This document shows, one piece after another, positions 13,719 through 15,142 of a DNA stretch of 43,420 bases (position 1 is the stretch's first letter; each line of letters opens with the position of its first letter). Location of the stretch: UHGV virus genome UHGV-1685692; one strand, given 5' to 3'. The position numbers were made by a program, and so were the translations under genes. Origin of the DNA: a virus. The notes under the pieces were generated by a model, which did no database searches, was not told the origin of the DNA, and was given only the letters and a program-made list of their open reading frames with translations.

Positions 13719-13789
13719 CATAGATCCAATAAACAGATCCTAAAGAGAACCTAGGAAGATCCAAAGAAGATCCCGGATCGCTGTAAGCC
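13719..13789. promoter_or_regulatory. plasmid replication origin elements (oriR-like): DnaA box plus cluster of five GATC Dam sites
   Basis: Perfect DnaA box TTATCCACA at 13719-13727; GATC at 13733, 13746, 13768, 13779, 13786, several in AGATCC heptamer context; immediately upstream of the iteron array. Confidence 0.5.
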
Positions 13790-13820
13790 GCGCCATTTCT
13801 GGCCTGAAATGGGATCAACA

Positions 13821-13923
13821 TTGACTATACGCGATTTTATGTTGACTGTGCACGATTTATTGTTGACTGCACGCGATTTATTGTTGACTATACGCGACAG
13901 AAACATTGACTGTACGCGACTTT
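13821..13923 (+). repeat. five direct iterons upstream of repA (incC-like)
   Basis: Five roughly 21-bp direct repeats starting at 13821, 13842, 13863, 13884, 13906 with core TTGACTRTRCRCGA. Confidence 0.65.
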
Positions 13924-13999
13924 AGAGCCTGACTATTCACAGTTGTTGATAACTGCAATCCAGATGACGCCAGGCCGCGCCACATATGGAGAAAACACG

Positions 14000-14884
14000 A
14001 TGCCGGAAGAAAATAAAGGCTTCCTTAGCGTTGAAGAAGTTGCTGGAAATACAGGAGAAATCCACAGCCTGAAACCCAATAACAATAGCACTATACAACC
14101 CATCGCTTTGTTGCGCTTAGGTGTGTTTGTGCCAACCTTAAAATCTACCAATGTGGCACTACGTCGCGGATCGTCAGTTACTACAAACACAACGAACGCA
14201 ACCGAAGAACTATCAAGCCTCAAAATTGTTGAGCAGGAAGGCTATGAGGGAATTGAAATTCATGGTCCACGCCTGGATATGGATACTGATTTTAAGGTGT
14301 GGGTGGGCATAACCTCCGCGTTGTTTGACTACGCACCTGATGATGACGGTATAATCACCCTGCCATTCTCCGAGTTTGCCGATCGATGCGGCTATCCACG
14401 TAAGCGCCTTTCAAAGGCGTTCCGTAAAAGTATTGATGATTCTCTGACACGCATTCAGCAGACAGTTGTCAAATTCCGCTTCCCGGCGGCAAAAGGTCAT
14501 CTCAATAACATTAACGTCAACTTGTTGGCATATAGCAGCCTGAATACCGAGCTTGATGTTATCGAGATCCAGCCGCAGAAACAGCTATCTGAACTTTACT
14601 ATGTTGACTATAAGCGAATCCTGAAGCTGAAGATGCTGGATAAGCTCGGGCGCAAAGAGACGGCCAAGGTACTGTATACATTCTTTGAGGCTCTACCCGC
14701 CAACCCGGCACCTGTCAGCATTGAGCGCCTTAGAGCAAGGCTTAATCTCAAATCATCCGTTAGCGTGCAAAATAGCGTTATCAGAAAAGCCATGAAAGAT
14801 TTAGAAGCTATTGAATATCTTAAATTTTCAGAGATAAAAAACGGCAGGAAAATCGGCTTCCAGATCCATAAGCGCAATCCATAA
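14000..14884 (+). CDS. repA: iteron-binding plasmid replication initiator RepA (P1 RepA family)
   Basis: GGAG RBS 8 nt before ATG 14000; PIALLRLGVFVP, GPRLDMDTDFKVWVGI, HSRNP-like C-terminus as recalled for P1 RepA; flanked by iteron arrays. Confidence 0.8.
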   Translation: MPEENKGFLSVEEVAGNTGEIHSLKPNNNSTIQPIALLRLGVFVPTLKSTNVALRRGSSVTTNTTNATEELSSLKIVEQEGYEGIEIHGPRLDMDTDFKVWVGITSALFDYAPDDDGIITLPFSEFADRCGYPRKRLSKAFRKSIDDSLTRIQQTVVKFRFPAAKGHLNNINVNLLAYSSLNTELDVIEIQPQKQLSELYYVDYKRILKLKMLDKLGRKETAKVLYTFFEALPANPAPVSIERLRARLNLKSSVSVQNSVIRKAMKDLEAIEYLKFSEIKNGRKIGFQIHKRNP

Positions 14885-14886
14885 TA

Positions 14887-15142
14887 TTGACTATATGCGA
14901 TAGCGAGAAGTTGACTATAGGCGACATTCATTGACGCTGGTGGATTTTTGCTGGAGTCAATATTCTGCAAGTCGCTATTGAGATGGCTTTTAGGGTCATT
15001 TCATCGCGTATAGTCAACGTTTCTCCCGACAATATCTTACATAGTCGATCTTTGGTGGAGTTAAATCGACTACAGTCAACTTTTGACTGTAGTCACATCG
15101 CGCATAGTCAACTATTCACATTAACCTTCGCGCATAGTCAAC
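14887..15142. repeat. iteron array downstream of repA in both orientations (incA-like copy-control locus)
   Basis: Direct copies TTGACTATATGCGA (14887) and TTGACTATAGGCGAC (14911); inverted copies TCGCGTATAGTCAA (15004), TCGACTACAGTCAA (15067), TCGCGCATAGTCAA (15098, 15129) and partial copies. Confidence 0.6.

Follow-up and report, generated by a model that had tools for sequence, protein, structure and literature searches.

The stretch of DNA analysed here (the window) consists of 43,420 nucleotides of one strand of the virus genome UHGV-1685692. Between a upfA gene and the partition genes parA and parB, all of the type found in phage P1, the window was found to hold a plasmid replication module, consisting of an origin with a DnaA box, a cluster of GATC (Dam) sites and a row of direct repeats (iterons), followed by repA, a second array of iterons in both orientations, an open reading frame (ORF) for a protein with a T5orf172 domain and a terminator-like hairpin (Table 1). 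The block at 13685-16052 is very probably the p0111-type plasmid-prophage replicon of a P1-like phage-plasmid (Punavirus), that is, a homologue of the P1 oriR-repA-incA region with a different DNA-binding specificity. Relatives of the same type, namely SJ46, RCS47, JL22, phi456, vB_EcoM-Ro157c2YLVW (below, Ro157c2YLVW) and pO111_2, were found to share the whole block at 97-100% nucleotide identity, with the same iterons, the T5orf172 gene and P1-type parABS. RepA is 99.3-100% identical across these relatives, and their differences from the window are point changes only. A more distant relative, designated L004, is found on the 91-kb E. coli contig DABKFZ010000018 and belongs to a plasmid-prophage lineage.

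The repA ORF has the sequence GGAG 8 nt upstream of its ATG, and RefSeq annotates the same start on an identical plasmid. Its product aligned with P1 RepA over the full length at 119 identical positions of 291 (41%, E 2e-71), and identities obtained with tblastn to the P1 and P7 records were alike at 40.9%; the N-terminus and much of the remaining protein have diverged from P1 RepA. The RepA proteins of SJ46 and JL22 were found to be 100% identical to it. The protein was assigned to PHROG 775 (E 2e-134) and gave a match to Pfam Rep3_C above the cutoff (27.3 versus 21.1 bits), with no matches being returned when the PDB and NCBIfam were searched with its sequence. The top PDB matches to an AlphaFold2 model of RepA were all iteron initiators, these being RctB domains 2-3, RepE with iteron or operator DNA, pi, the WH1 domain of pPS10 RepA and TrfA, with a Foldseek probability of 1.00 against them.

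The five direct iterons of the origin were found to have the sequence TTGACTATACGCGA, with cores that begin at 13821, 13842, 13863, 13884 and 13906, giving a spacing of 21, 21, 21 and 22 nt. Across the 43-kb window, a degenerate iteron pattern gave 14 matches where 2.9 were expected. This number was reached by none of 100 shuffles, and 12 of the 14 matches fall within 13821-15141. When scored with a position matrix derived from the unambiguous copies, the five origin iterons gave values of 24.9-29.9, with the top score outside of the replicon (13817-15145) being 12.5. Every iteron begins with TTGACT, which matches the -35 consensus at five of six positions. The GATC cluster to the left of the iterons places five sites in 57 nt, compared to approximately 0.23 expected from the window average of 4.1 per kb, and most of these are situated within heptamers of the AGATCC type; a sixth GATC is located at 13813. 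A second site resembling a DnaA box was identified between the iterons and repA, and the oriR of P1 likewise has DnaA boxes on its repA side. Weak pairs of direct repeats 349 nt apart (13659-13677 with 14008-14026, and 13711-13735 with 14060-14084) were considered as the trace of a duplication and set aside as probably due to chance, since the first copy sits in the P1-derived flank.

Downstream of repA, nine TTGAC cores were identified at 14887-15141 (four on the plus strand and five on the minus strand), with 0.64 being expected per 300 nt. Direct sites were placed at 14887, 14911 and 14931 and inverted sites at 14951, 15004, 15036, 15066, 15098 and 15128, a count of three plus six in which 14951 (partial) and 15036 (degenerate) are included. 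The inverted sites from 15004 to 15128 follow each other at intervals of 30-32 nt, with that at 14951 lying 53 nt before 15004. Six sites of the array are full-length iterons (matrix scores 24.6-28.6) and the remainder are partial or degenerate, with the degenerate site at 15036 being a full iteron in a relative. At 15083, the plus strand has an additional partial core, which makes a palindrome with the site at 15066. Two palindromic pairs of half-iterons were seen in the array, TTGACGCTGG...CTGGAGTCAA at 14931-14960 and GACTACAGTCAA-CTTT-TGACTGTAGTC at 15066-15096; similar inverted repeats serve as operators to which RepE-type initiators bind as dimers, and no such pairs are annotated in P1 incA. 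One more iteron-like site lies within the coding sequence of repA. This site was given a matrix score of 17.4 (at most 12.5 outside of the replicon), is unchanged in SJ46, RCS47, phi456, Ro157c2YLVW and L004 (at 5605-5618 of the latter) and has no equivalent in P1 repA; it could be a regulatory site for RepA, or could be kept by coding constraint (YVDYKR).

The original prediction for this locus had described a DnaA box, five GATC sites, five direct iterons and some nine iterons in both orientations downstream of repA. All of these were recovered and exceed chance, with the DnaA box situated slightly to the left of the region that had been flagged (from 13719) and with six of the nine downstream sites being full-length. 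With initiator homology, phased direct repeats and host-factor sites all present, the replicon appears to be of the iteron-controlled theta type with an initiator of the Rep_3/RepFIB family; binding of RepA to the iterons and autonomous replication are predicted by analogy. SJ46 and JL22 have been described as being maintained as plasmids with this repA (PMC5241659, PMC9603915).

Table 1. Features of the p0111-type replication module and of its surroundings in the window (positions are those of the window).
Feature	Position	Strand	Remarks
Exchanged block (p0111-type replicon module)	about 13685-16052		2.4 kb; replaces about 1.6 kb of P1 (oriR-repA-incA)
DnaA box TTATCCACA	13709-13717	+	Perfect consensus match; also in P1 and the distant relative L004
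GATC (Dam) cluster	13722-13779		Sites at 13723, 13736, 13758, 13769 and 13776
Five direct origin iterons	13817-13923	+	Core TTGACTRYRNRCGA; equivalent of P1 incC
Second DnaA-box-like site TTATCAACA	13944-13952	-	8/9 match; between iterons and repA
repA	14000-14884	+	294 aa; P1 RepA/RepFIB (Rep_3, two winged-helix domains) family, predicted iteron-binding initiator
Intragenic iteron-like site TTGACTATAAGCGA	14604-14617	+	Within repA coding sequence; one mismatch
Control array	14883-15145	both	Sites: three direct, six inverted, and a further partial core (+); equivalent of P1 incA
T5orf172 (GIY-YIG-like, N-terminal domain) ORF	15177-15986	+	269 codons; between control array and parA
Terminator-like hairpin GCCCC-TGAAC-GGGGC followed by a T run	15994-16018	+	Right end of exchanged block
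parA, P1 type	16155-17351	+	ParA 397/398 identical to P1
parB, P1 type	17368-18369	+	ParB 332/333 identical to P1
parS centromere (P1 incB determinant)	18374-18456	+	83 nt
C4/ImmI region and tRNA genes	28946-29152, 5280-5355, 7356-7509

Comparison with P1 showed that the plan of the module is shared with that phage. Common to both are the order of the parts and their place between upfA and parA, the 21/21/21/22-nt phasing of the origin iterons (P1 iterons 14-10), DnaA boxes to the left and right, a cluster of five GATC sites and an array in which three sites are direct and six inverted, with a phasing of approximately 31 nt (incA as annotated in NC_005856). Dissimilarities were identified on the left side, where the window has one DnaA box and P1 has two in tandem and where the five GATC sites of P1 are partly at different positions, and on the right side, where the window has approximately 0.9 kb of extra DNA (the T5orf172 gene and the terminator) between the control array and parA. 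The iterons differ in sequence as well. Those of P1 are annotated as the 19-mer GATGTGTGCTGGAGGGAAA, and its best ungapped match to the consensus of the window was 9 of 21 positions, with random 23-mers averaging 9.0.

An ordinary P1/P7 (IncY) replicon, with the P1 iteron simply misjudged in the original prediction, would fit the layout, the P1-like iteron spacing and flanks that are 96.7-97.5% identical to P1. There is next to no probability left for this explanation, however, given the 41% identity of RepA to that of P1/P7 and an iteron match at the level of random sequence. Furthermore, megablast with the P1 module and with the module of the window returned disjoint sets of records (362 + 415 = 777). 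Near identity to P1, which the original prediction had named as the outcome that would overturn it, was thus not seen for either component on alignment, and its claim that the RepA N-terminus and the iterons do not match those of P1 holds. On its replication determinants, the replicon is not IncY, as its iterons are unlike the P1 19-mer and its RepA is 41% identical; plasmids with proven incompatibility have RepA proteins that are approximately 72-73% identical or more (PMC10999674).

The partition module next to the block was found to be of P1 type, as had also been predicted, with near-complete identity of ParA and ParB (Table 1) and, in parS, with identity to P1 in each ParB A and B box that is annotated. 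Internal differences of parS from P1 were limited to three substitutions, two within and one beside the IHF site, and two further substitutions were found in the downstream flank of the 115-nt parS alignment. The deposited RCS47 sequence encodes a ParB identical to P1 at 333 of 333 positions and a ParA identical at 397 of 398, and the ParA of SJ46 is the same as the P1-type ParA of the window. Identity to P1 was 96.4-99.7% over five collinear segments that lie on both sides of the module and add up to approximately 16 of the 20 kb compared. By this collinear and highly similar backbone, the element is classed as a P1-like phage-plasmid. Taken at the level of sequence, a swapped replication-specificity module on a P1 backbone is supported, because RepA is diverged and the iterons are unrelated, with the partition module and the flanks being of P1 type.

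The extent of the exchange was examined by alignment with P1 and L004. With blastn, the left flank was found to be 97.5% and the right flank 96.7% identical to the annotated P1 region, with no match between them. In bins of 20 nt, identity to P1 was 95-100% up to approximately 13684 and 60-85% in 13685-13817, after which none was detected until similarity returned at 16053, a short distance before the region of the par promoter. In a three-way alignment, the part with the DnaA box, the GATC sites and GC-rich sequence was closer to L004 than to P1 from approximately 13738 on. The whole origin is therefore considered to belong to the exchanged block, because 13685-13817 is only 60-85% P1-like and its later part is nearer to L004; the similarity to P1 that is left in 13685-13817 is due to host-factor sites conserved across the family. 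A left junction inside oriR (13803-13804, at the end of the blastn match) was considered and dropped after the comparison of 20-nt bins and the alignment with L004. The block starts directly after the stop codon of upfA and its hairpin, and this left junction is common to SJ46, RCS47 and Ro157c2YLVW. For phi456 only the right junction is visible, with an insertion sequence (IS) interrupting the upfA side at window position 13541. The swap proposed in the original prediction was therefore confirmed, with the correction that the exchanged block is larger than had been proposed and includes the half of the origin with the DnaA box and GATC sites as well as the T5orf172 gene.

The T5orf172 ORF is broken in the window by an in-frame TAG at 15483-15485 (codon 103), which is TGG in SJ46. 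It was found to be intact in RCS47, phi456 and Ro157c2YLVW, with SJ46 having a different nonsense codon further on. This suggests that the gene is dispensable for maintenance, because it has been knocked out independently in the window and in SJ46. Among complete E. coli genomes, the T5orf172 block was found in 412 and the replicon in 415. This linkage, together with the position of the gene at the right-hand junction, forms the basis of the idea that T5orf172 is a homing-type nuclease that would cut IncY-type P1 between incA and parA, with repair converting the neighbouring replicon; such a role is regarded as very unlikely.

The replicon could be assigned to a type that is already named. A 1.5-kb stretch of it was 99.4% identical in Salmonella phage SJ46 and 97-99% identical in JL22, Ro157c2YLVW, phi456, RCS47 and others. 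It was identified in 399 plasmids of PLSDB, mostly non-mobilizable E. coli and Salmonella plasmids of 90-100 kb, two of which were 100% identical. Among 5,426 complete E. coli genomes, 415 carried the replicon of the window and 361 the classical P1 module; eight copies of the p0111 module were located on chromosomes. Over 1,373 nt, the replicon was 99.1% identical to NC_013370.1 (pO111_2, from E. coli O111:H- strain 11128). We take AP010962 to be this same pO111_2. AP010962.1 is the p0111 reference (PMC11165635). The PlasmidFinder type "p0111" has its name from pO111_2, and by sequence identity the replicon of the window is of that type.

The split of P1-like phage-plasmids into IncY and p0111 types has been described previously. 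In JL22, "repA' (p0111)" and a gene without assigned function, gp57, stand in place of "repA (IncY)", and 24 of 55 P1-like phage-plasmids were found to be p0111 (PMC9603915). Of 119 P1-like phage-plasmids, Pfeifer and Rocha counted 63 with p0111 and 52 with IncY (PMC10879196), and a Salmonella survey counted 132 p0111 and 94 IncY replicons, with 17 switches of replicon type inferred on the tree of P1-like elements (PMC11165635). The RepA of SJ46 has been reported as 42% identical to P1 RepA (PMC5241659). A previously undescribed replicon or incompatibility type is therefore extremely improbable, given these papers and the fact that named phages as well as hundreds of plasmids and genomes, pO111_2 included, have near-identical copies. 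Two observations would agree with such a type, namely that the iteron sequence was not found in searchable papers and that an identical plasmid bears the label "IncHI1B", which shows that typing tools are inconsistent. The plasmid concerned is E. coli plasmid NZ_CP020522.1, which is 99.99% identical to the window over 13.5 kb and is typed as "IncHI1B" by MOB-suite (PLSDB). Likewise, a 2026 preprint on O111:H8 names a P1-like phage-plasmid IncY, yet it is said to carry the pO111 replicon, so that labels for the p0111 module are inconsistent across both tools and papers. The replicon type and the IncY/p0111 split are thus known, and what may be unpublished is limited to the fine anatomy, meaning the iterons and the junctions; no description of p0111 iterons or of the block junctions was found in the searchable papers, with some likely sources lying outside of that search.

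The decay of the adjoining T5orf172 ORF in this copy might also be taken as a sign that the repA module is an inactive relic, with the prophage being kept by another replicon. There is very little to recommend this explanation, as repA is intact, its protein is at least 99% identical in 394 plasmid records and the iterons are conserved. In addition, no other plasmid initiator was seen within the neighbourhood searched (window 11000-19000), and in SJ46 and JL22, which are plasmid-borne, the gene carried for plasmid replication is this repA (PMC5241659, PMC9603915).

The cluster of p0111-type RepA proteins was found to be tight. Beyond the 394 records at or above 99% identity, five lie at 60-99%, after which values fall to below 50% and into the RepFIB family. 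The initiators of IncFIB, IncFIB(K) and SSU5 are 44-49% identical to the RepA of the window, slightly nearer than P1 RepA; these RepFIB-family replicons of enterobacterial plasmids and SSU5-like phage-plasmids have different backbones, and iterons were compared for a Proteus relative alone. In L004, RepA is 85% identical and the nucleotide sequence 77% identical, with the same six GATC positions and DnaA box as in the window, a similar control array and five origin iterons TTGACTATGTGCGA at 21/21/21/22 nt. L004 is without the T5orf172 gene and without parAB downstream, and the similarity of its flanking genes to P1 tail genes is only 66-72%; a relationship between L004 and the donor of the p0111 module is possible. 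In the Proteus relative, RepA is 53% identical and the 21-nt-phased iterons have the sequence GTTGATGCTAGTCGATTTT. Iteron matches thus fall with RepA identity, from 20 of 22 positions in L004 (85%) through 14 of 22 in the Proteus relative (53%) to 9 of 21 in P1 (41%), which appears to be the pattern expected of an initiator and sites that co-evolve. Within the p0111 type, iteron substitutions were found to affect the middle positions and to spare TTGACT and CGA. The full-length downstream iterons are invariant in four relatives, with changes gathering in the leader from the last iteron to the ATG.

A mechanism for the replicon may be proposed from the experimentally characterised replicon of P1. 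Established P1 biology is the basis for the steps of origin opening, repA repression and copy control by the array. RepA monomers would bind the five 21-nt-phased TTGACT...CGA iterons (the role of iterons is described in PMC10999674), and together with host DnaA on the flanking boxes and Dam-methylated GATC heptamers would open the origin for theta replication. The occupied origin iterons would also repress repA. The array of three direct and six inverted sites would titrate RepA and pair with the origin (handcuffing), keeping the copy number near one. Most likely, recombination with a related plasmid-prophage lineage brought the module into the P1 backbone, after which it moved among P1-like genomes by way of the 97%-identical flanks.

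Several points weigh against this account of the locus. The match of RepA to Pfam Rep3_N was slightly under the cutoff (22.0 versus 22.4 bits). The structural model is of moderate quality, with a pLDDT of 73 overall and of less than 50 for the first 60 residues, and its TM-scores to solved initiators were low (0.22-0.43). A simple scan with the sigma-70 consensus on the plus strand among and after the iterons gave no convincing repA promoter, with no -10 element to match. No donor lineage was found, the nearest non-identical relative being L004 at only 77% nucleotide identity and without T5orf172. The searchable papers yielded no experiment on this replicon, and RepA binding, origin function, copy control and incompatibility are all predicted by analogy with P1.

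With regard to incompatibility, the annotation of P1 lists three determinants, these being incC, incA (iterons) and incB (parS), of which only the first two are changed in the window. The joint change of RepA and the iterons should keep replication control from cross-reacting with P1/P7 (IncY), and the unchanged ParA, ParB and parS should still give incompatibility of the P1 partition type (incB). The different incompatibility group put forward in the original prediction is therefore upheld only where replication is concerned (the equivalents of incA and incC) and not for incB, for which P1 parS is retained. No experimental incompatibility of this replicon with P1 was found in the searchable literature.

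Co-carriage of the two types was investigated by means of a union query, in which the two modules were concatenated, against the 5,426 complete E. coli genomes. The query returned 777 records, which equals 415 + 362, and therefore no molecule carries both modules. The records belong to 774 genomes, so that two genomes carry both types (415 + 361 - 774 = 2), compared to 27.6 expected under independence (415 x 361 / 5,426). As the genomes are not independent samples, this deficit is indicative only. Double carriage of the same type was found in no genome for p0111 and in one for IncY. The swap could be imagined to make the element fully compatible with P1, allowing two prophages per cell and providing the selective reason for the existence of two types. 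The replication determinants are unrelated, the two types have been suggested to be theoretically compatible (PMC11165635) and the two E. coli genomes mentioned carry both types on separate molecules. Full compatibility is nevertheless unlikely, as parS and ParB are of P1 type and incB incompatibility should therefore persist, and as the two genomes observed against 27.6 expected are no more than is seen for same-type double carriage. As an indication, the replicon swap does not visibly permit coexistence with P1, and the deficit of co-carriage is consistent with the retained P1 parS and presumably with shared immunity or exclusion.

Other parts of the window were also compared to P1. The C4 antisense RNA with its a1/b1 targets (ImmI region) and the tRNA genes Met-CAT, Thr and Asn were present, as expected for a P1-like element. 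The region at 5365-6452 gave no match to the P1 tciA-tciC region and was found to hold a minus-strand ORF of 275 aa with a lipoprotein-like N-terminus (5383-6210) and an ORF for a hydrophobic product of 78 aa (6191-6427); this region corresponds to one of those in which P1-like phage-plasmids are known to vary (PMC9603915). In the gene for a methyltransferase of the Dam family, an internal replacement or deletion relative to P1 dmt was identified at 9298-9481 (184 nt versus 430 nt), with the gene of the twin plasmid being 2,019 nt versus 2,265 nt in P1.

The practical value of these results is small, as the swap that was spotted from sequence alone is the common p0111 type, which is routine in plasmid typing. 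Beyond the typing literature searched, the exchanged unit is recognised here as the whole origin with repA, the control array and the T5orf172 gene, placed directly behind upfA. The exact iteron phasing of P1 and the plan of its array with three direct and six inverted sites have been kept in it, although the iteron sequence is unrelated. The scarce co-occurrence of the two modules bears on statements in the literature that both types should be compatible. Were the doubtful homing activity of T5orf172 to prove true, it would explain the repeated switches from IncY to p0111 and the near-equal frequency of both types among P1-like phage-plasmids.

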